From NCBI RefSeq assembly GCF_030013595.1, contig NZ_CP122768.1: DNA of 64,000 nt; one strand, given 5' to 3'. Position 1 is the stretch's first letter; every line of letters starts with the position of its first letter. Below the pieces are notes generated by a model, which worked only from the letters and a program-made list of their open reading frames with translations, was not told the DNA's origin and did no database searches. The stretch comes from Escherichia coli. GTDB lineage: Bacteria > Pseudomonadota > Gammaproteobacteria > Enterobacterales > Enterobacteriaceae. The position numbers and the translations under genes are program-made. Below are positions 7,623-29,312 of the stretch, piece by piece.

Positions 7623-8195
7623 TTAGCCAATACCAAACGCTCGGATTGAACCCAAATCCTCCAGATTGTTCAGATCCTCTTTCATTTCACGCTGACGGCG
7701 ATAAATCTCGTCATTGCGATCGACCTGAGCCTGCGCCATTGCTGCCGCCAGCTCCTGAAGCTGTGCCATTGTCAGAGTGACAAGGTTATTTGCTGCATCC
7801 CCCCATCCCAGCGTTGACCGCGTACCTGCAACCTTTGTCGCCATTGCCACGGGCGCAATACGACTTATTGAGTCTGCACCACCATTCCAGGTACGACCGT
7901 TCCATTCGAACGTGAACGGCTGCGCCTCCTGTTCTGTGCGCCATGCTTCGATTTCCTGGCGTTTGGCGGCTTTTGCTGCTTCCAGCATTTCAGGTGATAC
8001 AGTGAACGGGGCTATATCCCCCCATTTACCGCTTTGCAGCTCCTGCCAAATTTGCTGGCCTGTTGTTGCTGTGTCTTCTGGTGTAGATGTGTAGGGGATG
8101 AAATCTTTCATCCCCTCAAATAACACTTCACAGTCAATTGCGCCATTCTCCAGCCTGCGGGCGTTTTTGATTTCTTTTATTTTTATCCCATTCAT
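7623..8195 (-). CDS. tail fibre assembly protein (Tfa)
   Basis: 190-aa ORF directly downstream of a fibre gene; Tfa/gpG-like architecture. Confidence 0.7.
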   Translation of the reverse strand: MNGIKIKEIKNARRLENGAIDCEVLFEGMKDFIPYTSTPEDTATTGQQIWQELQSGKWGDIAPFTVSPEMLEAAKAAKRQEIEAWRTEQEAQPFTFEWNGRTWNGGADSISRIAPVAMATKVAGTRSTLGWGDAANNLVTLTMAQLQELAAAMAQAQVDRNDEIYRRQREMKEDLNNLEDLGSIRAFGIG

Positions 8196-9598
8196 CAGGA
8201 AACTCTCACAAACAGACCGAAAATAAAATCGCTGGTCGCCTGAGTGCTGTTGCCCAGAGAGACATAGGCTCCCGAAAAGTGGCGTCCAGTATCCAGCACA
8301 TACCGTGGTGCTCCGTCATTCGACACTATAACAGCGCAGGGAATCAGAGTGCTGCCGCTTACGCTGTCACCACGTTTTATCGTATATTCATCAGTATTTG
8401 CTGCACGGTACGCGGCCTGAGTTAAGCCGCCAACTGCCACATCTCTGAATGGTACGTCGTACCACGGGCCAGCTATGTTATACAGCCATCTCGCACCATC
8501 TATCGCGGTTAAGTTTTGACTCAGGCATGTCCAGCGTATGTTCGTACTGTCCGCCCTGACCTCACAACAATACACGTCCTGATTAACCCCGTTAAAAATG
8601 ACAAACTTATCGCGCCTGTTTTGATTTTCATGCGTTGCTGTTTCCAGCATTTTTATCTCTACCTCTCCGCTAAAAACAACCCCTTCTATAATGTCCTTGG
8701 AATATGGGCCACCATATTGAACGACAAGATAGCGCCCCGGGGGAGTGGTCTGTACCCAAGAAGCAAATGTTGCTGATGTCGCGTATTTATCAAACTCCTT
8801 ACGTTGTGTGGGATACGCGCCATAACCGAAAGCTCCCGGAAGTGCCACACAACCTTCAGTTCGGTTGTAAATGTCTGTTTGTACATCCATCGTTGCAGCA
8901 CTTTTCAACCCCAGATTGTCTCGGGATTCCTGCTGAGCATCTTCCCCCTCTGCTGCAATTTCTGACAGGTGATTCGCCGTTTTCAGCGTTGCAGATAACG
9001 CAACATCAATATCATCTCTGGCCTGCTCTGCATCGGATGCGGCCTGTTTGGCGGCTTCAGCATCCTGCCTGACTTCTTCGGCGGTATCCTCAACCTGCGA
9101 GGCCAGCTGTTCAACGCGCTGCGTGTTTTCCTCCACAGCATTTGTATTCTGCTGAACATTATCTGCCAGCGTTTCAACCTGCTCTTTTATCAGAGCTGCC
9201 GCTTCAGCATGTTGCCCTGCCTGTCGTTCGCTTTCCGCTGCCGCTTCCGCGCTCTGCTGCGCCTGCACCACCAGTTCTTCGAACCGCTTAACAACATCTG
9301 GCTTCAGGTCGCCTTCATCGAGAGCGGTCAGGAAGTCGTTCAGCGTGCCGTGCTTTGAATCGTCGTAAACCGAAATATCACCGACACAATATTCTCTTTC
9401 AATACATGACCGAAGATAAACGTCATATCTTCCGGTCTGAGCCTCAAATGCATATTCTCCTGCCGGCCCCGTCACCACTGTTGCCACCGTTCTCATGACC
9501 ACTGCGGATGTATTCTGTCGGGCTTTCAGAATAATATGGTATCCGGACATGGGGAGTCCCGCACCATCCGTCAGCACACCCGAAATTAATACAGACAT
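8195..9598 (-). CDS. side tail fibre protein, lambda Stf-like N-terminus
   Basis: N-terminus (ISGVL.DG.G.P…LKAR.N.S…VY.DS.HGTLNDFL) resembles the lambda Stf N-terminal domain; acidic coiled-coil middle; followed by Tfa. Confidence 0.75.
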   Translation of the reverse strand: MSVLISGVLTDGAGLPMSGYHIILKARQNTSAVVMRTVATVVTGPAGEYAFEAQTGRYDVYLRSCIEREYCVGDISVYDDSKHGTLNDFLTALDEGDLKPDVVKRFEELVVQAQQSAEAAAESERQAGQHAEAAALIKEQVETLADNVQQNTNAVEENTQRVEQLASQVEDTAEEVRQDAEAAKQAASDAEQARDDIDVALSATLKTANHLSEIAAEGEDAQQESRDNLGLKSAATMDVQTDIYNRTEGCVALPGAFGYGAYPTQRKEFDKYATSATFASWVQTTPPGRYLVVQYGGPYSKDIIEGVVFSGEVEIKMLETATHENQNRRDKFVIFNGVNQDVYCCEVRADSTNIRWTCLSQNLTAIDGARWLYNIAGPWYDVPFRDVAVGGLTQAAYRAANTDEYTIKRGDSVSGSTLIPCAVIVSNDGAPRYVLDTGRHFSGAYVSLGNSTQATSDFIFGLFVRVS

Positions 9599-9622
9599 GT
9601 TTATTTCCTGATTCAGAAAACA

Positions 9623-10711
9623 TTAACCAAAATAATTGACGCCTTTTTTCTTGCCACTGGCTTTCCCCTTTGCAGAAATATCCGTGGTCAGTGACAGATT
9701 CAGCGTAAATCCCTGTCCCGGTACCAGTGAAAACTCCACAGACTCAGCCTGCCAGTGATGGTCCTCACGCACACCAAATCCCTGCGTGACAAAACGCATC
9801 TCCGCCCCTGCTTTCAGCAGTTCCGGCCTGCAGGGCAACGTTATCGTCATCTGGCGTCCGACTTTCTGCACACGTTTAACCTTCGACTCTGCACAGTGTT
9901 TTGCGGTGCCCTGGTCAGGCTGGGTAAACGGATGCCGCTTATCTGTTGACTCCACGTCAACTTTAACTTCACGTGTGCGTCCGTCACGGGCATCAAAATA
10001 CCGGACCCCAACTTTCCCGCTCTTTTTATCCCCCTTCGCACCACCCGCAGCGCCCTGTCGCTCACCTTCACGATAATCCCAGTCTGATACCATACCCGGT
10101 GTAATGGTTATCTCAGGCGCATTTCTGCCCCCCGTACTCTGTGATGCCCCGTATTCCAGAAATAACCAGTAGCCATTGGTCGGTTTACTGGTGGCGCCGT
10201 ACATACCTGCAATGCGGGACAAGAGGGCAGCATCAGATTCTGATGACTGCATCACCCACGGGATATGAATATCAGCAAGCACCGATGAGACGCGCGCCAC
10301 CAGATTATTTTCAGTGGCGATGGTGTTCACCAGGTCGCCCAGTGTGATATCGCTGAAAGCCCGGGTTTTCAGTGCGGTCACGTCTGCGCCATGTTTTGAC
10401 GCATTCATGGGGGCTGCGGTGGCATAAATGGTGAGCCGGCGGGGAGGACCACCGCTTGCCACCTGACAGACGGTAAAACTGCCTTTATTGACCAGATTTC
10501 CGTTGAACCCCAGTCCCAGCGTTAGCACCGCGCCTTTCGGTGGTAACGCCAGCGTCTCGCTGAACAGCGTTATCATCAGTTCATCGGACCGCTTTGTGGC
10601 TGCACCATTATCGGTATATCGCAGTTCAGCCAGCCCCCGTTTCAGGGCCTTCGTGATATCCTGGCCTTCCGCTGTCAGGCTGAAATCCGGCTGATATTCA
10701 TTCAGTCCCAT
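9623..10711 (-). CDS. tail protein D-like (P2 gpD / late control D family)
   Basis: 362-aa ORF in the P2 gene-order position after U and X. Confidence 0.6.
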   Translation of the reverse strand: MGLNEYQPDFSLTAEGQDITKALKRGLAELRYTDNGAATKRSDELMITLFSETLALPPKGAVLTLGLGFNGNLVNKGSFTVCQVASGGPPRRLTIYATAAPMNASKHGADVTALKTRAFSDITLGDLVNTIATENNLVARVSSVLADIHIPWVMQSSESDAALLSRIAGMYGATSKPTNGYWLFLEYGASQSTGGRNAPEITITPGMVSDWDYREGERQGAAGGAKGDKKSGKVGVRYFDARDGRTREVKVDVESTDKRHPFTQPDQGTAKHCAESKVKRVQKVGRQMTITLPCRPELLKAGAEMRFVTQGFGVREDHHWQAESVEFSLVPGQGFTLNLSLTTDISAKGKASGKKKGVNYFG

Positions 10712-10920
10712 AACTGAAACGTCTCCTTCACTTCCGGTTCATATACCCAGTCCGGCAACACGATTTCCACTCCCGACGGATAGACCGGACCAAGGTCAGC
10801 CAGCCCGGGATTGGCTTCCAGTACCGCCGCCAGTGACTGGTTAAGCCCGGCACTGCCATAGTGTCTCTGACAGATGTCATCCAGCATATCGCCGTCAGTG
10901 GTCCGCCAGTTTTTCGCCAT
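10702..10920 (-). CDS. tail protein X-like (LysM-like)
   Basis: 72-aa ORF between U-like and D-like genes; size and position. Confidence 0.6.
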   Translation of the reverse strand: MAKNWRTTDGDMLDDICQRHYGSAGLNQSLAAVLEANPGLADLGPVYPSGVEIVLPDWVYEPEVKETFQLWD

Positions 10921-11389
10921 AGTATTTCAGCTCCAGTGTGAACGTTTTGTTCTTTGGCGCCCCGCCGGGAAGAAAGGACGTGGTGTTATCTGAATAGGCG
11001 GTTGCCACGAAATACCCCATCACATCGCCTGTACTTGAGACCAGTAACTGCGGGGCCGGATTGTCATCCACCATCTGAACCAGCGTATCAAGGGCATCCA
11101 TTCCCACACCGTCACGAAATCCCGCATGCACCATGCCTTCAAGGGTTATTGTTCTGGCCCCCTTACCGGTATACTGCAGCAGGTCGTTTTTTCCGATAAG
11201 CTGCTGTTCATCCCATCGCCATTCCATAGTGCGCTTCATGGCGTTATAGGCTGCCGTATCAATACTGAATTCAAACTCACCAAACGACAGCATGACGCGG
11301 GAGGCGACATCCGTTAATGAACCCACCGCATCCCATGCTTCACGTTCAAGCCGGTTTACGCCCCAGCCCAGCAAATCCACCATGTTCAC
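10895..11389 (-). CDS. tail protein U-like
   Basis: 164-aa ORF immediately downstream of the tape measure gene, as in P2. Confidence 0.6.
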   Translation of the reverse strand: MNMVDLLGWGVNRLEREAWDAVGSLTDVASRVMLSFGEFEFSIDTAAYNAMKRTMEWRWDEQQLIGKNDLLQYTGKGARTITLEGMVHAGFRDGVGMDALDTLVQMVDDNPAPQLLVSSTGDVMGYFVATAYSDNTTSFLPGGAPKNKTFTLELKYYGEKLADH

Positions 11390-13044
11390 CCCCAGAATGC
11401 ATCACCATCGGTCATGCGGGAACGCTGACCAAAATTAATATCTCCCAGATTTTTCGTTACCCTGTCTGCCAGTTGTCCGGCATCCTCGCCGGGCTTCTGG
11501 GTGATGTTAAATTCCGCCCGTATCTGATACGTGGGTTTTACTTCCACCCGGCTGATACTGCCGGGGGTATGCTGAAGCGCTGAAAGGCGGTCAGCCTCCC
11601 CCGATGCGGGTTCCTGACGAGTTTTCTGTAGTTGATCGCGGGCAGCGCGAACACGCTCCCTCGCCCCATCAAAATCAGGTTCTTCCTTCGGTCCCAGCAA
11701 AGGATCGAGAAATGCATCAAACTTTTTATCGTCATGGTTCCAGGGGAGATAACCGCGGGTGTCTTTATAAGCCTGTACAACCTGTTTCGTCAGCTCCGGA
11801 TTTTTCCTGAGCAGTTCATCAAACCATTCACCCTGACCGTTTTTCTGCGCCACCGCTCTCGCCAGCTCAGGCGAACCCATTTTTGCCAGATATTCCAGCA
11901 CCTCTCGCCGGTCCTCCCGCGAATCATCCGCCAGCCCCCACTCAATGGCTTTCTGCGTTATTCCTGCAAGAACTTTTCCGAATTTCCACATCCACTCGGA
12001 CAAATCGATCAACGCCGGCAGGGCATCATCAAGGATAAATGCCTGAATCTTCTCAAGGCCACCCTCCTTAAACCAAGCCGCAAGATCATCCGTCACCTGT
12101 TGGATACGTGGCGCAAGCTCATTACCCAGTTGTCCGCTGATTTCATCAATGGAAGAACTCAAAACATTACGGAGATTTGACAGCGCCACATGCCCCTGAA
12201 CTGCGCCATCAGCCCCTTCTTTTGTCACCAGGTTATAGCGTTTCTGCTCACTGATAAGCTCCCGGAAGGTTTTTCCTGACAGACGCATCCAGGTCAGAAT
12301 TTTATTGGCCTCCCCCCCAAACAGCGCATCTGCCATCCCCGCCGCCTGCTGCTCATTCTCCACCTGCAGTAAGCGATCAAACAAAAATTCGACCTGTTCC
12401 TGGTTGTTTTTTCCGGCCATTACGCCCGCTTTCAGCCCCAGTTTACCGAATACCTCCTGAATGGCTCCTTTGTCCGTGGCACCATTATCATCGTCAAAAA
12501 CCTTGTTCCGGTATTCCTCAAACAGATCACCAATGTTTTCGCCGTTTAACCCCATCTGACGGCCCAGTGAATCCCACGCCGCATAGGTTTCGTAATCCAC
12601 CCCATAACTCCGGGCTATCCCTGCCCGCTCTGCCGTTTCCGAATTCCGGTTCAGTACCGCGCTGGCACCTGCTGCCAGCGTCAGCCCGGAACCAACAGAG
12701 AGCCCGAGTCCGGTTTTAAGAAATGTCCCTGCCCGTCCTTTCCAGCGTTCCAGGCGCTCTGCCCGTTCAAGCTGGCGATTAAATCGCTCCTGCTCCGCTG
12801 CAGCATCATTGATTTTCCGTTTCAGCTTTTCATACTGCTTTCGCAGATCGGTAATATCCTGCCCTGCCAGTACGCCAGCCTGAATTTTTCGCTTCAGTAC
12901 ATCCTGCTGACGCGTCAGGCGTGCCACTTCCTGTGTCGCACCAGCCAGACCTCGCTTCAGCCCCTCTGTCGATTTTTTCCACGACGGGTCAATAGTGCCG
13001 CCGATCCGGATATTCGCTCTGAGGTTATCGCCCACCGTTGCCAT
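11386..13044 (-). CDS. tail tape measure protein
   Basis: 552-aa ORF, coiled-coil-rich, positioned after the E/E' chaperone. Confidence 0.8.
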   Translation of the reverse strand: MATVGDNLRANIRIGGTIDPSWKKSTEGLKRGLAGATQEVARLTRQQDVLKRKIQAGVLAGQDITDLRKQYEKLKRKINDAAAEQERFNRQLERAERLERWKGRAGTFLKTGLGLSVGSGLTLAAGASAVLNRNSETAERAGIARSYGVDYETYAAWDSLGRQMGLNGENIGDLFEEYRNKVFDDDNGATDKGAIQEVFGKLGLKAGVMAGKNNQEQVEFLFDRLLQVENEQQAAGMADALFGGEANKILTWMRLSGKTFRELISEQKRYNLVTKEGADGAVQGHVALSNLRNVLSSSIDEISGQLGNELAPRIQQVTDDLAAWFKEGGLEKIQAFILDDALPALIDLSEWMWKFGKVLAGITQKAIEWGLADDSREDRREVLEYLAKMGSPELARAVAQKNGQGEWFDELLRKNPELTKQVVQAYKDTRGYLPWNHDDKKFDAFLDPLLGPKEEPDFDGARERVRAARDQLQKTRQEPASGEADRLSALQHTPGSISRVEVKPTYQIRAEFNITQKPGEDAGQLADRVTKNLGDINFGQRSRMTDGDAFWG

Positions 13045-13470
13045 AACACTGCTTCCTCTCTTCCGCCTCTGCCAGCATTATTGCCACAAAATCCTCATAC
13101 GGCAGTGCCATCACATCTCCGGGTGACCACCCGAACCATACTCCGGCACGCCGTATCGCCATCAGGATGTTTTCTTCTTCCGCCGGACCGGCGGCAGCAA
13201 AAAAACATTAAACTGCCGCTCCAGGGCCAGGTAATCACACGCTTCCATGTTCATCATGTCTGCCGCGTCCATCCCGCACAGACCGGCAATCATATCCAGA
13301 TCAGCCTCTGCTTCCGGTTTGGTACTCCGGCGATGCAACAGACGATCGCGGACGGTGGGCGCACGCATGGTGACGTGCGTGATCGTCTGTCCTGATGCGG
13401 TGACATACGGCACGGATAACACAATTTCCACGCAGCTGGCAGGAACACTGTTTTTTTCCGACATAAGCAT
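13025..13470 (-). CDS. predicted E+E' tail chaperone fusion via programmed -1 frameshift
   Basis: Minus-strand heptamer t-ttt-ttg at about 13198-13204; the -1 frame stays open for ~57 codons to a stop at about 13025, overlapping the tape-measure start as in P2 E/E'. Confidence 0.45.
13162..13470 (-). CDS. tail assembly chaperone E-like
   Basis: 102-aa ORF between tube and tape measure genes; contains slippery T_TTT_TTG near its 3' end. Confidence 0.65.
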   Translation of the reverse strand: MLMSEKNSVPASCVEIVLSVPYVTASGQTITHVTMRAPTVRDRLLHRRSTKPEAEADLDMIAGLCGMDAADMMNMEACDYLALERQFNVFLLPPVRRKKKTS

Positions 13471-13522
13471 CTCCTAAAAAAAGAAAAGGCGGCCTGAGCC
13501 GCCTGAATGGCAGATCCCCGGA

Positions 13523-14041
13523 TTAAACCCGGATGATTTTTTTCAGATCCGACAGAACATTAACGCCGTTAATACGACGTACAAATTCCTCCGGAATAAT
13601 GCAGATGGTTTCCAGGCCATCGACAGCCTGACGGTAATAACTCAGTGACATTTCCACTGTCACCGAAGCCTCTGCCTGTGATGTTGCCGGACGTGCATCC
13701 GGCGTGATACTGGTGATCATCCCCTGCAGGGTTTCCACCTGTCCGCTGGTCGCATTTCCCACCCGATAAGCCTGGCGCACAACAATCTCCGGCGAATAAA
13801 GCCCGGCCTGCAATCCCAGCAGCGTAAGCATGGCAACATCATAACCATAAATCTTAAACGAACAGGTCAGCGCTTCCATGCCGTCATCCACTGCCACCGG
13901 TGCATCCATTGCGCCGGTTTTGATATCCACTGTCGTGATATTAATGGCAGGCGGCGTGTATTCATGCGCACCCTGAAGGCGGATCCCGCCAGGAAGAAAT
14001 AACGCCCATGCACGCAACAGTTTTTTTTCACCCGTAATCAT
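13523..14041 (-). CDS. tail tube protein (FII-like)
   Basis: 172-aa ORF directly downstream of the sheath gene. Confidence 0.75.
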   Translation of the reverse strand: MITGEKKLLRAWALFLPGGIRLQGAHEYTPPAINITTVDIKTGAMDAPVAVDDGMEALTCSFKIYGYDVAMLTLLGLQAGLYSPEIVVRQAYRVGNATSGQVETLQGMITSITPDARPATSQAEASVTVEMSLSYYRQAVDGLETICIIPEEFVRRINGVNVLSDLKKIIRV

Positions 14042-15513
14042 ACCGTCAGTTCCTCCAGCGCCAGTTTATTGTTAATCATTGCCCGCAGTGTCAGGCGCTC
14101 CAGTGGTGACTTCGGCCCAAAGTCATAATCGATATACAACTGCCCTGCCGCCAGGGTTTCTGCTGTATTCAGTTCATCATTCAGCCAGGCGCTGCCACCG
14201 TGGATCGCACCCAGATTTTTAAGCTGACGCATATAGGCATTAATGCTGCCAAGAATGTCGTCTGCCACATCCCGATCAAGCGGGCGATCGACATAAGGCA
14301 ACATGGCCTCCTGGATACTGTCCTCAATCACATCTGCAGTGCGACGTACCGGTTCAAAGCGCCACTGACTGTGGGATGTGCACAGACGGTTACCCCAGTG
14401 TTTAAAACCGTCATGGCGAATAATGGTGGAGATATTTTCCATGTTCAGCAGGTTTGCCGTGCAGTTCTGCTCCCCGAGAATAAACGTATCCACCTGCTCC
14501 AGACCGGTGATATTCATCACGTCCTGGTTTGATTTGGACCACCACCACCCTTTTTCATAATCAATACGGGCACGCAGCCCGGCAGCACGAGCCGAATATG
14601 GACGAAATACCGTTTGCCCGCTGTCATCCGTCACTGACACGCGCGGACGCAGCAGCTCCACACGTCCGCCAAATGACGCGCGCCGCTGAACCACATCCTG
14701 CGGCGTTGCCATTGAGGGCGAGTCAATATAGGCCACAGCCCGCAACTTCGCGGCATACGTTTCCAGCGCCTTTGCCACGCCATCATCCTCACTGTACCCC
14801 GTGGCAATGAGGATGCGCGGTTGATAGCCTGTCACGCCCTTACTTTCTGTCAGCGCCTCCATGGCCTGAATCACCGCCGCACGCTGTTCGGCCTCTTTCG
14901 CCTTTGCTTTACTTTCTGCGCGCACCACAATCACCAGCGCACCAGTCTGGTCAAAAATATCACGCAGGGCCGGGTATAATGTTCCGGCTGTGCCCAGTTT
15001 CCCCGCCTGAGTAATGGCCCCTGCCACCACCACCGGTGTGTTGACCGGGAACGCCTCATCTTCCCCGCCGGATAACGTCAGGCTGAACGGCGACACCACT
15101 TTATTTTCAGCGCCTCCTGCATTCAGGGTGCTGGCAGCCGCCGTCACAGGCGAATCCCCCAGCGCATTCACCACTTCAGTCACACAATCCACCGTGGCGT
15201 TAACCTGGCTGTGTTCGTCCGTCCCCAGTGTTATCGTCAGGGTCGTACCTTTCAGCGAGGCCACTGTCTGCGCGTTTTGTTCCGTGGCAGCCACGGCAAC
15301 AACCGAAATCTTATTACCGACCCGACCTTCCTGTTTCGCCGTGAAATCCAGCGCCGTTCCCAGCAGCCAGGAACCGGCTGTGCCGGAAGCGCACACACCA
15401 CCAGAGGCGTCCGGCGCTGTCCCCACCAGGCCAATCACTGCCGTGGAGATGGTTTGCACGGCAACCGTGCCTGTCGTCAGTTCAATGGTTTCAACACCAT
15501 GTAATCCGGACAT
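14038..15513 (-). CDS. contractile tail sheath protein (FI-like)
   Basis: 491-aa ORF preceding the tube gene; sheath size class. Confidence 0.8.
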   Translation of the reverse strand: MSGLHGVETIELTTGTVAVQTISTAVIGLVGTAPDASGGVCASGTAGSWLLGTALDFTAKQEGRVGNKISVVAVAATEQNAQTVASLKGTTLTITLGTDEHSQVNATVDCVTEVVNALGDSPVTAAASTLNAGGAENKVVSPFSLTLSGGEDEAFPVNTPVVVAGAITQAGKLGTAGTLYPALRDIFDQTGALVIVVRAESKAKAKEAEQRAAVIQAMEALTESKGVTGYQPRILIATGYSEDDGVAKALETYAAKLRAVAYIDSPSMATPQDVVQRRASFGGRVELLRPRVSVTDDSGQTVFRPYSARAAGLRARIDYEKGWWWSKSNQDVMNITGLEQVDTFILGEQNCTANLLNMENISTIIRHDGFKHWGNRLCTSHSQWRFEPVRRTADVIEDSIQEAMLPYVDRPLDRDVADDILGSINAYMRQLKNLGAIHGGSAWLNDELNTAETLAAGQLYIDYDFGPKSPLERLTLRAMINNKLALEELTV

Positions 15514-15567
15514 ACATTTCTCCCATAAAAAAACCGCCCTCAGGCGGTCAGATGATTAACTTCTTTT

Positions 15568-16113
15568 TCAGGTATTTTGTGGCTGCTCAGGCCAGCTAAT
15601 ATTGTTGTAAGTGGTCTTATCCGTAATAGCGCTGAAATCCATCGCCTGCAGCGATTTCGCGTAAATGCGGTACGCTTTGAGCTTTTCCCTGTCTTCGTCA
15701 CTGATTAATCCCAGCAGCAGGTCTTTTTCCCATTCGCTGGTCATGATGCTGACCTGTTTTAACAGTGCATCACGCTCATCTTCCGCTTTAAGTTTGTAGT
15801 CAAAAACAAATTCATCATTGCGGTAGAACCAGTATCCCGACGCCTCAATGCGACGATTAGCGGTAATATCCGGCAACTCAATCACACTTTTATTTTCCGG
15901 GCAGATTGAGGTGATGTCTTTTCCGACCCAGACCACTTCGCCAGTTTCAACATAAATAACTTTCAGAGTGTCTGGCTGAAATTTTTCCTGGGCTTCGTGC
16001 CATTCCTGACCATCATCGGAGAACAGCCACAATAAAAATTTATGCTGTCGTGCCAGCTGGTATTGCTCAATTGTTTTAGGGTTTTGTGCCGTAAGATTTT
16101 TTAAGTGCATCAT
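15568..16113 (-). CDS. tail fibre assembly protein (gpG-like)
   Basis: 181-aa ORF downstream of fibre gene H. Confidence 0.65.
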   Translation of the reverse strand: MMHLKNLTAQNPKTIEQYQLARQHKFLLWLFSDDGQEWHEAQEKFQPDTLKVIYVETGEVVWVGKDITSICPENKSVIELPDITANRRIEASGYWFYRNDEFVFDYKLKAEDERDALLKQVSIMTSEWEKDLLLGLISDEDREKLKAYRIYAKSLQAMDFSAITDKTTYNNISWPEQPQNT

Positions 16114-19947: not shown

Positions 19948-20497
19948 CACCGGTGCCCTCTGTTTTCCAGATAAGACGATAATCCCGCTCATGTTTCTTG
20001 CCGGTTTCCGGAGCTTTCCCCAGCCAGACTTCCTGTAAAGGCGCACCAGCCGGAACCTCGAACGGATCTTCTCCGACAGGAATATCCTGTTCAAAAGAAA
20101 CGCGGAAAACGATGTAGTCATCCAGAAGCCGGTCGAAGGTATCCACCTCAGCATCAATAAAAACAGCCGGATCAACGTTATCCAGCCCGAACGTGGCCCC
20201 CTCAATCCAGTCAGATAAATCCATCGCCAGACAACGGGCAAAAATCTGCGGTTTTGGCACGTTTTCCGTCTTCCCGGCCCGGTCTGTCACCACAAACAGA
20301 TCACATTTCAGCGTGACCCGCGTCTGCCCGTCGGCAAACTGAGCCTTGTCCCAGCCCGGTACATCCACAAACACGGCAGGCGTCACCAGTTGCGTCACTT
20401 TTTCCGGATACTCATCGGCATCTTCCACCCAGGGAATTTGTTTCAGACTGTCAATCACCGCCTGATGCCAGGCGCCCATCATCAATGGCTCCATCAC
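19931..20497 (-). CDS. virion morphogenesis / head-tail joining protein (unassigned)
   Basis: 188-aa ORF between head and baseplate modules. Confidence 0.4.
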   Translation of the reverse strand: MMEPLMMGAWHQAVIDSLKQIPWVEDADEYPEKVTQLVTPAVFVDVPGWDKAQFADGQTRVTLKCDLFVVTDRAGKTENVPKPQIFARCLAMDLSDWIEGATFGLDNVDPAVFIDAEVDTFDRLLDDYIVFRVSFEQDIPVGEDPFEVPAGAPLQEVWLGKAPETGKKHERDYRLIWKTEGTGDESGR

Positions 20498-21216: not shown

Positions 21217-21604
21217 AACGTTTACTCGGTCGTTCCGGTGCAGCAGGTGTATTTCTCCCGGGCTCTCCACGCGCAAGGGTGATGGTAATCACCCCCTGAC
21301 CCGCAGCGCCTGACTCATCCCAGCCGGGATCGACTACCTGATAGGGTTCGCCGTGGATCATGACCCTGTCATATTTTTTCAGACCGGCGGCCCATGCGCT
21401 CCGGGTAAATAACACGGGCGCAGTATCACGAATTTCGCCGCTGCCAGTGTTCATCCCGGTGTTATCTGCCGGGGCATCAAAAACGGCACGGATTTTTCTT
21501 TCCGTGCCGCCCGGATATATGCTGATTTCCGTCCCCATCGTATCCAGGATGATGTCATCCGCATCACTCATGGCCTGATCGAACAGATTATCGAACATCA
21601 TCAC
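21197..21604 (-). CDS. head-tail adaptor / head completion protein (unassigned)
   Basis: 135-aa ORF in the head-tail joining block. Confidence 0.4.
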   Translation of the reverse strand: MMMFDNLFDQAMSDADDIILDTMGTEISIYPGGTERKIRAVFDAPADNTGMNTGSGEIRDTAPVLFTRSAWAAGLKKYDRVMIHGEPYQVVDPGWDESGAAGQGVITITLARGEPGRNTPAAPERPSKRYGSQRA

Positions 21605-21966
21605 TCCCGGATTTTTTCTGCCAGACCGTCTGCCAGCAACGCGGGAACTGTGGCTTCATTAACCAGCACAACACTGGAGGCCCGGGCAAACATCAACATT
21701 TTTCCCGTCACAGCATCACAGGCTGGCATATGCGCCGTTTTCAGCATACGCACCCGGGCGAGTCCCTGCTCAGAATGCATTCCGTCGCCGGATGCATCGT
21801 TGCCCACCTCTTCCTTCCCCGTCTCCTCCCCATCGAATCCAGCGGCCTCCTCCTCCCATTCCGCCAGACGCTGCTCAAGATCGGCTTTTGAACCTGAAAT
21901 ATCTGCTTCACGCCCCAGAATCACTGCCAGTTCCTGCAAACGTTCAGTCATCTGCTCTTTTGTCAT
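21601..21966 (-). CDS. hypothetical head-associated protein
   Basis: Track ORF 21601-22098 trimmed to internal Met MTKEQM to avoid overlap with the capsid gene; acidic. Confidence 0.35.
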   Translation of the reverse strand: MTKEQMTERLQELAVILGREADISGSKADLEQRLAEWEEEAAGFDGEETGKEEVGNDASGDGMHSEQGLARVRMLKTAHMPACDAVTGKMLMFARASSVVLVNEATVPALLADGLAEKIRE

Positions 21967-22016: not shown

Positions 22017-23045
22017 TTATTTCACCTGAACCACCACAAACGCATCCGGATCCGGCAGCACCATCAACGGCGCAGACTGCGTCATTGTATATTCGCAACC
22101 AGGATCCCCCACTTCCTCCCAGTGTTTCGGATAACGAATCGCAGAGGTGATCCCTTCACTCAGCGCCTGATTATCCTGGATTGCGCCATAGCAACGGACG
22201 CCCTCCGCCTGAGTGTTTCCCAGAATCAGTGTACCTTCCGGCAGATAACGCTGTTCATCCCCGTTTTCGTCAACATACGTTGTCTTCGCCACCACGACAG
22301 CCAGATCGCCGTACCAGCCCTTAAAGGAAACCACGGAACCCAGGTCTTTCAGTGCGGTTTCCAGCTCAGATTTGGAGCCACGGCGGGTATCCAGTTTTTC
22401 ACGGAACAGTTTAAAACCGTTCAGCATACGCCAGACCGTGCCGTCCATAATCGCGATATTGATGGTACCGGAAGCAAAATCGCAGTACGCATCAAGATCA
22501 TGCGTCGGATCAAAGGTGTCAGCATTCTGCTTTGACCATTCGCGTCCGCCAGCCTGCGTAATGTTATTGGCGGCAGAACGCCCAAAATCCACTTCCACCG
22601 TCTCAAACTGCTCGCCGCTCATAGTGTATTTACCCTGCAGAACAGCACTGACTGCCTGCATTTCTTCCACCTGCACAATCGCCTGCTCTTCCTGTTTCAG
22701 GTTGTCCGTCAGAATACGCAGACGGCGGTAAGCCGGGTCATTAAGGCGGGCCGGATCTTCCCCCGGAAGACGTTCTACAGCCTGCTGATAATCAAAGCGG
22801 TGTTTTGGTTTTACATAACCGGGACGTAACACGCGGGTTTCACCACCACGGCTGCGCAGCACTTTGCCTGACACCACCGGAGACACATACGCCGCAACCG
22901 GTGTTTTGCCGGTAATTTTATCCAGCATGACTTCCTGAGTATGGAAAGTGATCGTGCGACGAAAGAACAGCTCAAGAAACAGCGCACGAAATTTCACTTT
23001 CTGCTCGGTGTACCCGAGTAACTGACGCGTGGTAAATAACCCCAT
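22017..23045 (-). CDS. major capsid protein (lambda gpE family)
   Basis: 342-aa ORF following the decoration gene; size and position as lambda E. Confidence 0.8.
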   Translation of the reverse strand: MGLFTTRQLLGYTEQKVKFRALFLELFFRRTITFHTQEVMLDKITGKTPVAAYVSPVVSGKVLRSRGGETRVLRPGYVKPKHRFDYQQAVERLPGEDPARLNDPAYRRLRILTDNLKQEEQAIVQVEEMQAVSAVLQGKYTMSGEQFETVEVDFGRSAANNITQAGGREWSKQNADTFDPTHDLDAYCDFASGTINIAIMDGTVWRMLNGFKLFREKLDTRRGSKSELETALKDLGSVVSFKGWYGDLAVVVAKTTYVDENGDEQRYLPEGTLILGNTQAEGVRCYGAIQDNQALSEGITSAIRYPKHWEEVGDPGCEYTMTQSAPLMVLPDPDAFVVVQVK

Positions 23046-23114: not shown

Positions 23115-23450
23115 TCAGGCGTGGCTGATGGCACTTCCCACAAATGCGTTGGCTTTTTTCACCGCATCCACCGAACCAGGCCAGACCAGCGACTCAGTGG
23201 CAAACGTACCGCTTTTGTAGTACGTCAGCATGGGCTCGGTCCCGGCAAGCGCCAGAGCCAGCACACCCACAGCCGTTCCGGCTTTCTGACCATCCCAGAC
23301 AACCAGTTTTCCGGTGGCGTCATCCACCATCAGTGGCGTCAGTGCAGGTGTGGCAGCACTGATACCACTGGTGGCTGTTGCGGTATGCGCCGGATCGCTT
23401 CCGGCAAAAATGCGCGCATCTGCACGCTTTTCCGTGGTGGTTTTAATCAT
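23115..23450 (-). CDS. head decoration protein (lambda gpD-like)
   Basis: 111-aa ORF between protease/scaffold and capsid genes. Confidence 0.7.
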   Translation of the reverse strand: MIKTTTEKRADARIFAGSDPAHTATATSGISAATPALTPLMVDDATGKLVVWDGQKAGTAVGVLALALAGTEPMLTYYKSGTFATESLVWPGSVDAVKKANAFVGSAISHA

Positions 23451-23488: not shown

Positions 23489-25105
23489 TTACGGCATACT
23501 CATCAGCAGGTCTTCCTCACCGCGCCCGGCAGTTCCGCCACCGGAAACCGCACTGGCAGCATGCTGTGCCATAAAGCGATCAAAAAGTGTTTCCTGTGAC
23601 GGTTGCGATGCCGCCGGCGCGGCTGCCAGCAGCGTTTTCGCCTGCGCCACCGTCATTCCCGGTTGTTCTGTCAGTGCCTGTGCAAGTTGCTCGCGCCCTT
23701 TTGCCTCCGGCAGCGCCATAATCTGATCGCCGACACTTGCAGAACCAGCAACCGGTGCCGCCGCCAGTAACGTTTTGGCCTGGTCAACGGTCATTCCCGG
23801 CTGTTCAGCCAGCGCCTGCGCGAGTTGTTCACGCCCTTTTGCTTCCGGTAACGCCATAATCTGATCGCCTGTGCCTGCAGCACCAGCAGCAGGGGCTGCC
23901 GCCAGAAACGCTTTCGCCTGCTCCACCGTCATCCCCGGCTGACCTGCCAGCATCTGTGCCAGTTGCTCACGCCCCTTTGCTTCCGGCAGCCCCATAATCT
24001 GATCGCCCGTGCTGTCAGTACCGGCAACCGGCGCAGCTGCAAGCAACGTTTTCGCCTGCTCAACCGTCATTCCTGGCTGACCTGCCAGCATTTGCGCCAG
24101 TTGCTCGCGCCCTTTCGCCTCCTGACAATTCAGGATCCCCATCACGCGCTGATTTTCCTGGGCCACCGCTTCAGCAACGGTGAGATTTTTAACAGTCATT
24201 GCATTCTCCTTCGTAACAGAGTCATTCAGTACAGAAACCATCACTTCAACGGCATCTGCAGCATTAATCAGTTGATCAGCCAGGCCTGCATCAATGCCTG
24301 CCTGACCGTCATAAACGGCAGCCTCGGTATTCATCACCGCCTCTGAACTCAGCCCCGTATAAAGCGCCACCTTGTCGACAAACATCCGGCGGGCCTCATC
24401 AATACGGCGCTGAAAATCTGCACGCACACCTGCCGGCAATGCCTGAATACTGTTGCCGTCAACCTTATGCTGCCCGGAGTAAATCAGCGTGATGTCCACC
24501 CCTTCCTGTGCCAGTTGTTTCTCGTAACTGGTGTGCGCCATCATCACGCCAATCGAACCAATTTTTGCCGTCTGCGTGACCAGCCGACGGGTACAGGCTG
24601 CCGCCAGCAACATGGCGGCTGAACAGGCCATGTCATTACACAGCGCCCACACGGGCTTCTGTTCCCGCAGACGGTAAATCATGTCAGCACAGTCAAACGC
24701 CCCGGCAGCCTGACCGCCCGGGCTGTCGATATCCAGCAAAATGCCGCGCACATCCGGATCATTCACCGCCATCTGAAGGCGGGCCGTCAGGCCGTCATAG
24801 CCAGTCATGCCGGAGTAAGGCCGCAGGGTACCCAGTTTATGCACCAGCGTGCCGCTCACCGGAAGAATGGCGATGCCATTCTTCACCTGGTAACTCTTTG
24901 CCGGACGCTGACCGCCCGCCATATAGTCAGTCACAGCCAGTTGCATACCATCAGCATCAAGCTGAACAGCCTGCTGAGGAACGGCAAGGCTGCCGGCACC
25001 CATCTCTTTACCCAGCGCGCAAAAGAAAACCCGCGCATAGGCGGGTTCCAGTAAAAGCGGCTCATTAAATGCCATGGCGGCAATATGCGATAAATTACGA
25101 CGCAT
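23489..25105 (-). CDS. prohead protease fused to scaffold (lambda C/Nu3-like, S49 peptidase) with C-terminal ~46-aa repeats
   Basis: N-terminus MRRNLSHIAAMAFNEPLLLEPAYARVFF resembles lambda C; C-terminal repeats PEAKGREQLAQ.LA.QPGMTV.QAK.LLAAAP occur about 3.5 times. Confidence 0.85.
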   Translation of the reverse strand: MRRNLSHIAAMAFNEPLLLEPAYARVFFCALGKEMGAGSLAVPQQAVQLDADGMQLAVTDYMAGGQRPAKSYQVKNGIAILPVSGTLVHKLGTLRPYSGMTGYDGLTARLQMAVNDPDVRGILLDIDSPGGQAAGAFDCADMIYRLREQKPVWALCNDMACSAAMLLAAACTRRLVTQTAKIGSIGVMMAHTSYEKQLAQEGVDITLIYSGQHKVDGNSIQALPAGVRADFQRRIDEARRMFVDKVALYTGLSSEAVMNTEAAVYDGQAGIDAGLADQLINAADAVEVMVSVLNDSVTKENAMTVKNLTVAEAVAQENQRVMGILNCQEAKGREQLAQMLAGQPGMTVEQAKTLLAAAPVAGTDSTGDQIMGLPEAKGREQLAQMLAGQPGMTVEQAKAFLAAAPAAGAAGTGDQIMALPEAKGREQLAQALAEQPGMTVDQAKTLLAAAPVAGSASVGDQIMALPEAKGREQLAQALTEQPGMTVAQAKTLLAAAPAASQPSQETLFDRFMAQHAASAVSGGGTAGRGEEDLLMSMP

Positions 25106-26666
25106 CGACTTTTTCTCCCGTTGTCTGTCGGATCTGCTGCTGAAACGTGTCCTTTATCCAGATGGGGCGGGGAAGACCCGCTGCCTGTCGCTCCTGGCTT
25201 TCACGCAGTTGCTGGCGGAAAATCTCCTGATAGTCATCGCCCATCAGGGCCAGCTCTTTCTCATACGTGCTTAAACCACCTTCAATACGCATCACCGCTT
25301 CCTGCACTTCCTTAAGGCCATCAATCGCCATGCGACCGGCACCAATCCACTCGGCACGACACCATCCGGAACGGGCCTCCCAGAATGAAAAACGGGATTT
25401 CGGCGGGCGGATCACACCGCGAATAAGTGCTTCCTCCAGCCAGCAGGCAAACATCTGTGATGCCAGTCGACTGGCCACAAATTTTCGTTTGCCCATAAAA
25501 TACCGCCACGACTCATTGGCGGATGCCCTGGCACTGGAATAACTGACCTGTGAATAATCACGGGAAAGCTGTTCATAGGACACCCCCAGTCCGGCAGCGA
25601 TGTAACGTAACAGCGCCTTTTCCAGTTCAGAGAAACCATTATCTGCATTCTGCGCTGTCTGCAGATTCAGTGAATCCCCCGGATAAAGATGCGGAATACG
25701 GACCCCGCCCAGCTTTACCGTATTGGTGGCGTAATAACGCGCGTAGCCTTTCATGATGGTGTTCAGGGGATTTTTACCGCCATCTCCCACCCCGGCGATA
25801 TATTCAAATGCTTTTTCCGAATCCAGCGTGGATTCAATCGTCGCGGCATACATCGCCCGCACCACCGCCGACTGCAGTTGCGTGGCCTGCAGTGTGTCGA
25901 GCATCTTGAGGCGCTCCATGACAGAATAAAACTGGTTGGCCCCGCGCGTCTGTCCGTCCTCCTGCGGCTGAAACACATGGATCATTCCCGGTCGCCCGGA
26001 GGGCAGCGTCGCCGCAATCCGCGTCCAGTTGCTGACACCGTAACCGGGCCAGTCATCTTCCTGAACATGGTAGGCCAGTGCTTTTCCGTACCGGTTGATT
26101 TCCACCCCGGCACGCATAAAACGATCGCCGGTACCATAACCGGGTGTACTGACACGTTTCGGGCTGATGGTTTTGAATTTCGTCCGGAATAATGACGTGG
26201 ATTCCGTATCCCATACGGGCTGGACAAAAATTTCACCGTTAAATGTATGAACGCCCACCCCTTCACGAATAAATTCGGTAAACGAGCGACGCCCCTCCAC
26301 ATCCATCGAACCAAACACCGGATCGCAGAATTCCATCCACGCCGCCTCCACATCTTCAATAAAGGCATGTGAATCGGCTTCCGACATCCCCAGCCAGCGC
26401 CAGTTGGGCCGGTAACTCAGACGAAACATGTGTCCGACGATATGGTCTTTATGAATTTCAACGGCGTTTGCGGCAATACCGTTATTGCGGACCAGATCAT
26501 CCGCACGGGCGTTACCCAGCTGAATGGAAGGTAAGAGCGCCACGTCGGCACTTTCCGGTGCAGGCAGCCATTCCGCAAGCTGCCCGCCAAATCCGGTACC
26601 CCCTCCGGAATACCCCATACTCTGCCGCAGTGGCTGCCCGTGAAGATCCACCAGTTCCCCGTTCAC
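25095..26666 (-). CDS. portal protein (lambda gpB-like)
   Basis: 523-aa ORF between W and C homologues. Confidence 0.85.
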   Translation of the reverse strand: MNGELVDLHGQPLRQSMGYSGGGTGFGGQLAEWLPAPESADVALLPSIQLGNARADDLVRNNGIAANAVEIHKDHIVGHMFRLSYRPNWRWLGMSEADSHAFIEDVEAAWMEFCDPVFGSMDVEGRRSFTEFIREGVGVHTFNGEIFVQPVWDTESTSLFRTKFKTISPKRVSTPGYGTGDRFMRAGVEINRYGKALAYHVQEDDWPGYGVSNWTRIAATLPSGRPGMIHVFQPQEDGQTRGANQFYSVMERLKMLDTLQATQLQSAVVRAMYAATIESTLDSEKAFEYIAGVGDGGKNPLNTIMKGYARYYATNTVKLGGVRIPHLYPGDSLNLQTAQNADNGFSELEKALLRYIAAGLGVSYEQLSRDYSQVSYSSARASANESWRYFMGKRKFVASRLASQMFACWLEEALIRGVIRPPKSRFSFWEARSGWCRAEWIGAGRMAIDGLKEVQEAVMRIEGGLSTYEKELALMGDDYQEIFRQQLRESQERQAAGLPRPIWIKDTFQQQIRQTTGEKVDAS

Positions 26667-26872
26667 AGCCCCACTCCTGCCGGGCCGCGACGCCGTCCGG
26701 ATACGCCCAGCGCACTTTCCAGCTCTTCAATATACTGACGCAGTTCACCAATCGTCGCCCGCGAATACTGAACCTGACGCCCGTCCTTGCTGACGGAAAC
26801 CACAGCACGTCCGATCATCAGTTCATGTAATGCCCGGCGGGCATCACAAAGCATTTCATGCGTATAAACCAT
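26663..26872 (-). CDS. head-tail joining protein W (lambda gpW-like)
   Basis: 69-aa ORF; …RRRGPAG C-terminus like lambda W. Confidence 0.8.
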   Translation of the reverse strand: MVYTHEMLCDARRALHELMIGRAVVSVSKDGRQVQYSRATIGELRQYIEELESALGVSGRRRGPAGVGL

Positions 26873-26875
26873 TCT

Positions 26876-28792
26876 TTATCCTCCACTCAGTGCAGCCGCG
26901 ATTTCTTCCAGACTCATCTCATCGTCGTCCTGCTCATCTCTTCTGGCACGGGCCAGTGCTTCAAGATCCAGCTGCCACCGCTGAACTGAAATACGCAGGG
27001 CAGCATAGGCATATACCAGGCAGTCGAGGGCTTCGTTGCGTCGCCCTTTTTTATCCCACAGCAGTTTCACCCTGCCATTAACCACCTTCTCCACCAGCTC
27101 TTCCGCCACGATCTGACGCGCCTCTTCTTCCGAAAAAATGTCGGGGTTATCAGGAAAACGGAAGGTGTACGGGGCGGCTTCACTGGCAGAGACCACTGGC
27201 AGGGCAAAACGGGCGTACAGCATTTCCTTGACGGTATCGGAGCCCACCTCACACAAAAACACACCACGCTGGTTGCGCTTTTTGGGCATGGTGATCACCG
27301 GCTTGCCGTACACCGATGCCCCTTTTATGGGAAGCACAAAAAAAGTGCCGTGTTTCCTTGAACGCTGATACACAATGTCCTGGTCGATACCACCGGTATC
27401 CCAGCAGACACGGGAAATGGAAATTTCAGTACCGTCAGCATGACGATATTTTTTCCGGATCACCGTATCAACACGTTTAAGGGTGTCCTCGTCTTCCGGT
27501 CGCCCCATGATAATTTGCTTATCAATCAGAAAGGCTTCTTCGCCGGGAGCCCAGCCCCAGACATAAATTTCATAGCGATCTTTCTGGGAGTCGATCCCGG
27601 CGGTCAGGTAAACCACCCGCAGGGGAACCTGCGCACCATAGTGGCAGACCTTTTCCAGTAACAACTCAAAACTCAGCTTTTCTGCCACAGCCTCTTCATA
27701 GGGCTCCCCGAGCGTGGTGTTAATAAACGTCTTGACGCCGTTCGGATCCTTCAGCGCATCCAGCCAGTCATAAACAATCTGTACCCAGGTGGTGAACGGA
27801 CTATACGCCGTCCAGATGTGGAAAGTGACGGAGCGCGGCGGTGGCATCTCCTCATCGCCGGCGCTGTAAAATGCCAGGCCGTCGCGCGTCCACATCCCGG
27901 TATTGTCACAAATCCAGCGCCCGTCGGTCTGGTCAAGTTCCGACTGCCGGATCACACAGCCATTATGTTCACACAGGTAATACACCGTTTCCGGTTTACC
28001 CTTCTCCCATTTCAGGCCAAATGGCGTCGCATCATCGCCAAACTTCAGATACTGGGCCTCCCCGCAATGAGGGCAAGGGACATAAAACCGCATGAAATGC
28101 GCTGATTCATTTGCGGCTTTCTCAATCTGGCAGGAGCCTTTAATTTTTGGCGTTGAGCCACGTATGGATTTAGGCCATACCGAGCCTTCGATACGCTTAT
28201 CGCCAAGCAGCGTCGGCGAACCTTCTTTTTCCACATCCGGTTCAAACGAGGAGAGTTCGTCATAGCAGACCACATCCACAGATTTTTCACGGTAGTTTTT
28301 AGCAGCGGCGCCGCCAAGGCACCAGAAACCCACACCGGAGGAAAAACGCTTCAGGGTGAGTGTATTATCGCGGTGCTTTCTTCCGAACCATGGAGCCAGC
28401 TCCAGCAATGCAGGAACATCCCTGATCGTTGGCTCAACATGAGATTTCATGAAATCTTCTGCAGCAGAATCTGTTGGCTGAAAAAGCAGACTGTTACGGG
28501 ATTTATGCTCAATAAAATAAGCCTCCACCCCCAACAGCATTTTGGTGTAACCAACGCGCGCCGATTTAATCAGATTAACGGTGCGGATCCGGTCATTTCC
28601 CATGCTGTTCATAATGGCAACCTGAAACGGCAGGGTTTCCCATTGTCCGGGAGTGTATGAAGATTCTTTCGGCAGATAATAATGTTGATCAGCCCACTGA
28701 ACCGTCGTCAGTGGAACCGGAATATTGAGAGATAAAAGCCCTGTAGCTATCGCACCGGCTGCATTAGCTGCCTTCTGTGCGTCTGAAATCAT
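26876..28792 (-). CDS. terminase large subunit (lambda gpA-like)
   Basis: Track ORF 26876-28834; strong resemblance to lambda A (YYLPKES, KSARVGY.KMLLGV.AYFIEHK, Walker-like motifs); start placed at MISDAQ. Confidence 0.9.
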
Positions 28793-29312
28793 CAATCCAC
28801 CTGCCCACGTTTTCACCGGCTTTAGCTGCAACATTGGAGGCTTTCGCGATTTCAGTTTTCACCACATCAAGGTGTGACGGTGAAATATCCGGATATTTAC
28901 GCTGTAATGTCAGCGGCACACGTACAAGTATCCCCGAAATCTCCTGTGCCACACGTTGCAGAATGAAGGTAAACAATTCTGTTTCCAGCACCAGCCCTTC
29001 TTCACGGGCATTTTTCAGCTCCTGTGCGTCAGCCTGTGCTTTGGTTAACCGGTAGCGTTCATAGTCAATGGTGCCGGGTTGTAAATCTGATTCTGCAGTC
29101 GCACGCAAATCTTCCAGTTCTTTGCGGAGCTTTTCGTTTTCGATATCTTTTTCCCGCTGCGCATACCACTCAATGGCTTCTGCAGTATTGAACATGGCTT
29201 CGATACCTTTGCCTCCCCCCGACAAAACTCTCAGCCCCTGACTTTGCCAGCCAGTGATTGTTCTGACATCGCACTCAAAAATTTCCGCCAGTTTCTTTTT
29301 GTTAACCTTCAC
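28764..29312 (-). CDS. terminase small subunit (lambda Nu1-like)
   Basis: 182-aa ORF; N-terminus [12 protein letters not shown]…GGGKG resembles lambda Nu1 HTH and ATP-reactive region. Confidence 0.85.

Follow-up and report, generated by a model that had tools for sequence, protein, structure and literature searches.

What kind of particle would be built by a block of phage genes whose head half looks like that of lambda, whose tail half looks like that of P2, and which ends in two separate fibre sets? The block occupies positions 7623-29312 of the window, by which we mean the whole 64,000-nucleotide stretch of the Escherichia coli contig NZ_CP122768.1 (assembly GCF_030013595.1) analysed here. 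We regard it as very probable that it is the late operon of one intact lambdoid prophage, combining a head of the lambda/phage-21 type with a contractile tail of the P2/R-pyocin type and two sets of fibre and chaperone, and that it would build a myovirus. Our analyses establish the content, order and intactness of the genes, their homologies, a frameshift site, selection on the second fibre and exchange of fibre tips.

The interval runs from the start of the small terminase gene (29312) to the stop of a DUF4376 gene (7623) and holds 26 virion open reading frames (ORFs), close-packed or overlapping. All sizeable ORFs in it lie on the minus strand, the gaps between them short or negative, and all virion gene coordinates below refer to that strand. 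Family assignments were significant for all 26 (PHROGs, Pfam, NCBIfam and PDB sequence matches), and the ORF lengths equal those of the PGAP-annotated genes in a 99%-identical prophage of E. coli ETEC6335; no gene of the module is, therefore, truncated or frameshifted. As the observation is one of gene content and not a statistical pattern, chance is of no concern.

The block lies within a single element. The left 7.4 kb of the window is E. coli chromosome, with phoQ, pepT, roxA, potA and potB, and has a match in 5425 of the 5426 complete E. coli genomes. The 14-bp direct repeat TGAATAAGAAGGTG (7364-7377) stands at the fibre-proximal junction, within the 3' end of potB; its second copy (48665-48678) lies just upstream of the potC start and adjoins the gene of a tyrosine integrase (47402-48520). 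A search for att repeats with 12-nt seeds found nothing, and the core was recovered by direct comparison of the two junctions as their longest common word. Between the virion genes and int lie genes for a RecE-like exonuclease, the repressor (cI), cII, O, P, RusA and Q, four tRNAs, two holins and an M15 endolysin. With one integrase, one 14-bp att pair and lambdoid genes in between, this is a single lambdoid prophage of about 41 kb (approximately 7378-48678) in the 3' end of potB. Since the integrase sits at the opposite end, the fibre end is attR by the lambda convention and not, as a first-pass annotation had it, attL.

Head and tail genes

The packaging and head genes are those of lambda and phage 21, in the same order, Nu1-A-W-B-C/Nu3-D-E-FI-FII. 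A two-subunit cos terminase comes first, its small subunit, of the Nu1 type (28764-29312; phrog_57, 1.6e-61), being 87% identical in amino acids to phage 21 gp1 and its large subunit, of the A type (26876-28834, with the PGAP start at about 28792; phrog_15, E=0), 83% identical to that of phage 21. There follow the head-tail adaptor W (26663-26872; phrog_75, 1.7e-29; 47% to phage 21 W), the portal B (25095-26666; phrog_21, 1e-179; 74%), an S49 prohead protease with a C-terminal scaffold of the C/Nu3 type (23489-25105; phrog_53, 2e-216; 69% to phage 21 C), the decoration protein D (23115-23450; phrog_49, 4.1e-27; 75%), the major capsid protein E (22017-23045; phrog_2353/6020/29; 82%) and the DNA-packaging protein FI (21601-21966; Pfam Packaging_FI, 1e-9; phrog_92; 38%). 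In megablast, the stretch from A to E is about 77% identical in nucleotides to phage 21 and to further lambda-like phages. The likeness is uneven: at 47%, W is the most diverged head gene relative to phage 21 (69-87% for Nu1, A, B, C, D and E), FI falls to 38%, FII has no BLAST hit in phage 21, and W, FI and FII group with the lambda head-completion proteins by family-level matches only (phrog_75, Packaging_FI and Phage_attach). In the scaffold (Nu3-like) part of C, a 138-nt (46-aa) unit is repeated about four times (23610-24122), a feature setting it apart from phage 21; with these repeats the protein has 538 aa, against 501 aa in phage 21.

Upstream of Nu1, direct reading of 29330-29530 (minus strand) points to a lambda-like cos region, which we take to resemble lambda cosQ/cosN/cosB. 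The 12-nt cohesive end of lambda, GGGCGGCGACCT, is absent from the window; GGGTCTGGGGAC (29488-29499, minus strand) presumably occupies the position that GGGCGGCGACCT has in lambda, and its placing within a lambda-like cosQ/cosB context suggests a cohesive end differing from that of lambda.

In lambda, FII is followed by Z-U-V-G-T-H-M-L-K-I-J; here, instead, the tail genes run V-W-J-I-H-G-sheath-tube-E/E'-T-U-X-D. The baseplate spike is of the P2 V type (19324-19947; TIGR01644 phage_P2_V, 2.8e-19; PDB 3qr8, P2 gpV, 1.6e-10; 26% amino-acid identity to P2 V), the sheath initiator of the W/gp25 type (18934-19290; Pfam GPW_gp25, 1.3e-13; PA0617, 8.7e-15; 38% to P2 W), and the two baseplate wedge proteins are of the J type (18045-18959; Pfam Baseplate_J, 1.7e-20; PA0618, Tri1, 2.5e-52; 40% to P2 J) and the I type (17462-18052; Pfam Tail_P2_I, 3.8e-34; TIGR01634; PA0619, Tri2, 7e-17; 40% to P2 I). 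Beyond the first fibre set come the tail sheath of the FI type (14038-15513; Pfam Phage_sheath_1 and Phage_sheath_1C; PA0622, 1.1e-51; 37% to P2 FI over aa 146-483), the tail tube of the FII type (13523-14041; Pfam Phage_tube, 2.2e-20; PA0623, 2.6e-12; 22% to P2), the tail assembly chaperones E (13162-13470) and E+E' (13025-13470; Pfam Phage_TAC_7, 6.9e-10) and, in the position of P2 T, a tape measure protein of 552 aa (11386-13044; phrog_3654, 5.5e-215, with further tape-measure PHROGs down to 2.4e-11). The series closes with a U-type protein (10895-11389; Pfam Phage_P2_GpU, 7.6e-26; the R2 pyocin "ripcord" PA0626, 1.7e-13; 33% to P2 U), tail protein X (10702-10920; Pfam Phage_tail_X, 5.3e-17; PDB 2ltf, P2 gpX, 3.3e-9; the R2 pyocin "glue" PA0627, 1.3e-6; 49% to P2 X) and the baseplate hub D (9623-10711; phrog_52, 1.2e-94; R2 pyocin hub 6u5h_C, 7.1e-17; 35% to P2 D).

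Altogether, the P2 tail proteins V, W, J, I, H, G, FI, FII, U, X and D are matched at 22-49% identity. The matches to TIGR01644 and TIGR01634 exceed the curated cut-offs, while NCBIfam is mostly uninformative on the tail genes; Pfam gives nothing for the tape measure and is weak for V and for the hub (Phage_GPD, 0.025), where the TIGR01644, PHROG and PDB matches are significant. In the PHROG, Pfam, P2 and PDB comparisons, the tail genes fall in P2/R-pyocin families and not in siphovirus families, bearing out the contractile tail that had been proposed, and the family assignment of each structural protein by profile and BLAST searches confirms the gene orders given for the head and tail. The exception is X: its place between U and D had been counted as P2 order, whereas in P2 it lies in the O operon. 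We take its position here to be the arrangement of the R pyocins, and the order of the whole tail presumably agrees with the PA numbering of the R2 pyocin cluster (PA0615-PA0628). Every solved part of the R2 pyocin is matched by sequence or fold: collar, spike, sheath initiator, Tri1, Tri2, sheath, tube, ripcord, glue and hub.

The likeness to P2 extends to translational recoding. At the end of the E gene lies a slip site, T_TTT_TTG (13204-13198), from which no stop interrupts the -1 frame until 13025; the predicted -1 frameshift would yield an E+E' fusion of 148 aa, with a stop that overlaps the start of the tape measure gene. In P2, the arrangement is the same and the annotation of E+E' includes a -1 frameshift; to judge from the sequence, a P2-type site is conserved upstream of the tape measure gene. 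What is shared with P2 is confined to the tail, however. Tblastn searches with the P2 head genes Q, P, O, N, M and L, the tail completion genes R and S and the regulation and replication genes Ogr, Cox, C and A gave no hit; the element thus shares the tail type of P2 without belonging to the P2 family (Peduoviridae). No late regulator of the Ogr type was found; late expression presumably depends on Q.

Two features of the tail block deserve mention in their own right. The sheath protein, with 491 aa, is longer than those of P2 (396 aa) and the R2 pyocin (386 aa), and the matches to it begin around residue 146; it thus carries an extra N-terminal domain of about 100 aa, probably exposed on the surface, by which, as by the second fibre set after D, the tail differs from both. 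In addition, terminator-like hairpins with T runs stand on the minus strand after G (15532-15549), where the V operon of P2 ends, and after the tube gene (13487-13504); they may be relics of P2-style operons inside a Q-antiterminated transcript.

The joint between head and tail

The gene list of the first-pass annotation passed over two neck genes between FII and V, and these, together with FII, show where the two halves meet. FII itself (21197-21604; Pfam Phage_attach, 4.5e-11; phrog_82) has no BLAST hit to phage 21 FII at E<0.01 and is 32-34% identical in amino acids to its FII-like counterparts in Hafnia phage yong2 (MZ516527) and Citrobacter phage Chris1 (ON041214), two isolated temperate phages. 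The first neck gene (20494-21216), in the position of lambda Z, encodes a neck or tail-completion protein of 240 aa and of the Ne1/Tc class (phrog_27, "tail completion or Neck1", 2.5e-28), which is 41-42% identical to its yong2 and Chris1 counterparts and has no meaningful PDB match, either as a single sequence or as a three-sequence profile. The second (19931-20497) encodes a protein of 188 aa without a Pfam match. A profile of ten homologues of this protein hits the R2 pyocin collar PA0615 in the PDB (E=3.2e-4), and its AlphaFold model (pLDDT 72) matches the pyocin collar 6u5f (2.8e-8), the Mu terminator (1e-7) and lambda gpU (TM 0.55/0.75); because of these matches, we assign it as the tail terminator or collar, predicted to have the gpU fold and to be the counterpart of PA0615. 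Homology of the terminator family to P2 R or S was considered and rejected (hhalign probability <1%).

The comparison with yong2 and Chris1 separates the two lineages. They carry the same FII, neck, terminator, V and tail proteins, and FII, both neck proteins and all tail proteins of the window are 34-62% identical to theirs (FII itself 32-34%, the tape measure 38-41%). Their terminase and portal, in contrast, though of the same lambda families (TerS, TerL, W and portal), are only about 24% identical to those of the window, and their capsid genes are of another type, a fused Clp-protease/capsid gene taking the place of C, D and E. They differ as well in the order of the tail block (V-sheath-tube-E-T-U-X-D-W-J-I-H-G) and in having one fibre set, invertible in Chris1, and no pair of StfN fibre and DUF4376 protein. 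Since FII and the neck proteins match the phages that share the tail, while the head matches phage 21, sequence comparison puts the recombination joint with a phage-21-like head between FI and FII. The mosaic of lambda head and P2-type tail that had been described thus stands, but its joint does not coincide with the last of the head genes: beyond E, the close similarity to phage 21 is lost, and FII is linked to the tail. The tail lineage includes FII and both neck proteins, and the head-closure protein travels with the tail that it must bind. W stacks on FII. Where P2 connects its head through L, R and S, here a lambda-type head would be connected through W, FII and the Ne1-class protein.

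From these genes, we infer how a particle would be assembled. Transcription dependent on Q would pass through the whole virion block; the terminase would cut at cos and fill a lambda-type head, which W and FII would close, and a separately built tail would join the head through the terminator of gpU fold. In the tail, V, D, U and X would form the hub and J, I and the P2-type W the wedges; tube and sheath would be measured by T with the help of E/E', and the terminator and the Ne1-class protein would cap the structure. The first fibre would sit on the J/I wedges as in P2, folded by its Caudo_TAP chaperone, and the second would be folded by its DUF4376 chaperone, with the neck as our preferred guess for the seat of its collar.

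Two fibre sets and their exchange

The first set is that expected of a P2-like or R-pyocin baseplate, a fibre H of the PF12571 type followed by a Caudo_TAP chaperone G. Fibre 1 (16116-17465; 449 aa; Pfam Phage_tail_fib, PF12571, 4.3e-13, aa 4-148) is 42% identical to P2 H over its C-terminal 278 aa and, over aa 159-449, 59% identical to L54 of phage phiP27, whose N-terminus differs; its chaperone, of the G/Tfa type (15568-16113; Pfam Caudo_TAP, 2.3e-21), is 36% identical to P2 G and 93% to phiP27 L55. Fibre 1 is accordingly made of an N-terminal anchor and an exchangeable distal part, with anchoring at the baseplate predicted by homology to P2.

The second set lies at the att-proximal end, the fibre starting 24 nt after gene D with no terminator-like site between. 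Fibre 2 (8195-9598; 467 aa) is of the lambda Stf type (Pfam phage_tail_N, PF08400, 5.5e-53, residues 1-134) and consists of a collar domain (aa 1-94), a coiled-coil shaft (about aa 100-235) and a variable receptor-binding tip (aa 240-467). Residues 1-93 match the Ur-lambda Stf collar (PDB 9e7m) at 1.7e-16, and the N-terminus also matches gp40, the "collar spike" of the XM1 neck (7kjk), at 4e-6; both Ur-lambda Stf and XM1 gp40 have a collar domain, a coiled-coil shaft and a distal binding part, as fibre 2 does. Stf, with its Tfa-type chaperone, belongs to the gpV/gpM junction of a non-contractile tail and gp40 to the neck; the tip of lambda Stf resembles T4 gp37, and that of fibre 2 bears no relation to it. 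Structure prediction for the tip was uninformative, an AlphaFold model on a 22-sequence alignment reaching pLDDT 61 and pTM 0.48 and Foldseek finding nothing in the PDB above TM 0.25. The gene that follows (7623-8195; 190 aa) encodes a DUF4376 protein (Pfam, 8.7e-15), 68% identical in amino acids to phiP27 L57 (188 aa), in which Pfam finds DUF4376 only and no Caudo_TAP domain (PF02413). DUF4376 proteins have been shown experimentally to be fibre chaperones in the Alteromonas phages V22 and A5 (PMC7289586, PMC10579305), and by analogy with V22 gp27, that of fibre 2 would work like Tfa without being a member of its family. Of the proposed second fibre with a Stf-like N-terminus and its own Tfa, then, the N-terminus is upheld and a chaperone role is likely by this analogy, but the family is another.

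The pair is not a remnant. Fibre 2 aligns end to end with phiP27 L56 (490 aa; 56% overall, with about 90% in collar and shaft, about 30% in the tip and a common C-terminal LFVRV motif), and as the DUF4376 protein likewise aligns over its full length with L57, truncation, which would have undone the earlier interpretation, can be dismissed. The pair is under strong purifying selection: at a near-saturated dS of about 1-2.5, dN/dS is 0.08-0.10 in the collar domain and 0.15-0.19 in the chaperone. In sequence, moreover, the collar domain forms a myovirus-associated subgroup: pairwise identity among collars from four contractile-tail contexts is 60-78%, but only 44-47% with the collars of lambda and phage 21.

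Those four contexts are the prophage of the window, phiP27 (NC_003356, Stx2e), Rac-SA53 (KU052037) and a Mu-like prophage of E. coli UMNF18, all of which carry the same terminal cassette, fibre and Caudo_TAP followed by StfN fibre and DUF4376, next to att. They otherwise differ, phiP27 having an HK97-like head and a Mu-like tail, Rac-SA53 another contractile tail and the UMNF18 prophage being transposable and Mu-like; BLAST among the four finds no other tail protein in common, and in the last three, fibre 1 has another N-terminal anchor, fitted to the baseplate in question.

Close relatives within the lineage diverge mainly at the fibre tips. When the module is compared with the Stx2e prophage of ETEC6335, the stretch that begins with Nu1 and ends in the N-terminal part of H is 99.8% identical, and the stretch from G up to and including the fibre 2 collar 97.9%; divergence is confined to three places, namely the H tip, fibre 2 beyond its collar (shaft and tip) and the DUF4376 gene (76%). 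The tip of fibre 2 (aa 225-467) is, in turn, 95-99% identical to the tips of many 408-aa fibres with a P2-H-type anchor (PF12571). HP1-like E. coli prophages (loci L009-L011, 7740-11808) have two consecutive P2-H-anchored fibres, the first followed by Caudo_TAP and the second bearing the fibre 2 tip of the window at 95-99% and followed by DUF4376. With the same tip and DUF4376 on a different anchor, tip and chaperone move as a unit between anchors, and two-fibre designs are common among E. coli temperate myoviruses. The divergence at the tips and the presence of one receptor-binding tip on another anchor domain lend support to the suggestion of host-range modularity. As the same virion module carries Stx2e in pig enterotoxigenic (ETEC) and Shiga toxin-producing (STEC) E. 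coli strains, the two exchangeable tips probably decide which strains such converting phages reach.

The E-FI-FII-neck junction of the lineage occurs in 76 of the 5426 complete E. coli genomes and the junction from D to fibre 2 in 73, so that about 1.4% of them carry it, some with stx2e, and the automatic annotation is correct in many RefSeq genomes. In different strains, the copies stand at different chromosomal sites, which implies recent mobility. We found no paper describing the lineage, and literature searches on the tails of Stx2e prophages, on PF08400 in myoviruses and on the Hafnia phage yong2 brought up nothing specific. Contractile tails on mosaic lambdoid phages are well known, and since the lineage is already annotated in this share of complete genomes, the element is of an ordinary, recurrent kind; the only point beyond the textbook is a Stf-type collar domain on sheathed tails. 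In E. coli UMNF18 (NZ_AGTD01000001.1, 1365520-1410813), the same prophage lies at potB with tail proteins 100% identical to those of the window and is split inside the fibre gene H by the transposable Mu-like prophage, which itself ends in the same fibre cassette; the head half is found further on, at 1359047-1360446.

Docking of the second fibre and competing readings

In Ur-lambda, Stf forms a collar of twelve such domains around a junction of hexameric rings, where the last ring of the tube meets the distal tail protein (gpV/gpM; PMC12617516), while XM1 gp40 binds the neck, on the connector and terminator rings (PMC10457771). Homologues of gpV and gpM are absent here, and the docking site must, therefore, differ from that of lambda Stf. 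By analogy with XM1 gp40, the only solved myophage protein that matches the collar domain, we tentatively favour a neck fibre around the rings of FII and the gpU-fold terminator over a baseplate position, while holding the neck placement itself to be somewhat less than an even chance; apart from the gp40 match, it is preferred because the junction of tube and baseplate should be buried by the sheath and the baseplate. If true, docking at the neck would explain how the cassette of StfN fibre and DUF4376 is transferred unchanged among P2-like, Mu-like and other contractile tails and siphovirus tails, and it would give temperate phages, Stx2e converters included, receptor-binding proteins at both ends of the tail. 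The structural question raised is how a collar domain solved on the non-contractile tail of lambda is mounted on sheathed tails across several unrelated baseplate types.

Several points weigh against the reading that we prefer, in its whole or in its parts. The evidence on the prophage comes from its genes, and no isolated phage in the collection searched has this tail above 62% sheath identity. Among the tail proteins, E and T have no direct BLAST match to P2 and the E' extension has no Pfam match, and the assignment of the Ne1-class neck protein rests on a single PHROG label. As to docking, the match to XM1 gp40 is modest and the neck location an analogy only; the second fibres of the HP1-like prophages use a baseplate-type anchor (PF12571), and second fibres could equally sit on the baseplate. 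With the tail estimated from the 552-aa tape measure at roughly 80-90 nm, the shortest versions of fibre 2, such as that of 467 aa here, look too short to span from the neck to the cell surface.

Of the competing explanations, the one that we would discount least, though we still think it unlikely, is that the prophage is cryptic, with genes that look intact and infectious particles no longer made. The copy in UMNF18, broken in H by the Mu-like insertion, fits such a state; but the 26 virion ORFs are intact and of the same lengths as in the 99%-identical relative, the genes for lysis, Q, replication, immunity and integration are present, and the different chromosomal sites across strains imply recent mobility. 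It seems more doubtful still that fibre 2 and its chaperone survive without function from a lambdoid siphovirus ancestor whose Z-J tail was replaced, and are not built into particles. The pair does occupy the att-proximal position that stf-tfa has in lambda and phage 21, and neither protein of the gpV/gpM junction gripped by the Ur-lambda collar is found here. A relic would, however, hardly remain full length in both genes with dN/dS of 0.08-0.19 at near-saturated dS, nor would it be expected to share a collar subgroup with other contractile-tail phages (60-78%, against 44-47% to lambda and phage 21), to follow four different contractile tails with an actively exchanged tip and to stand only 24 nt behind D with no terminator-like site between them.

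The interval might also be read as two adjacent or nested elements, a fragment of a lambda-like prophage beside a P2-like prophage or an R-type tailocin, given that the tail block is collinear with what we take to be the order of the R2 pyocin cluster, every solved pyocin part being matched, and that terminator-like hairpins follow G and the tube gene, where P2 operons end. We find this barely credible: one integrase and one att pair flank the whole 41 kb, the late genes run on one strand without gaps, and the P2 head, replication and regulatory genes gave no hit. FII and the neck genes, furthermore, link one half to the other and are inherited along with the tail in yong2 and Chris1, and the head-tail junction recurs in 76 genomes, at different integration sites. 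On this evidence, we considered and rejected a tailocin, a pair of tandem prophages and a relic fibre as explanations.

Some features of the prophage lie outside the virion genes. Directly downstream of the Q antiterminator gene (32974-33669) are the four tRNA genes, Gly-TCC, Thr-TGT, Lys-TTT and Met-CAT (32454-32763). At this position downstream of Q, ETEC6335 and phiP27 have tRNAs followed by stx2e; in the window, a toxin gene is absent from this place, which holds just an ORF of 90 aa (31987-32259) without a PHROG match. Integration in the last codons of potB alters the C-terminus of PotB from ...KKVELE to ...KKVSDIDN (7364-7395 and 48665-48689), and potB and potC, which normally overlap, are separated by the insertion. 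Finally, an intergenic stretch in the nin-like region of the prophage holds about 12 copies of a perfect 9-bp tandem repeat, ACAAACAAT (35826-35936).

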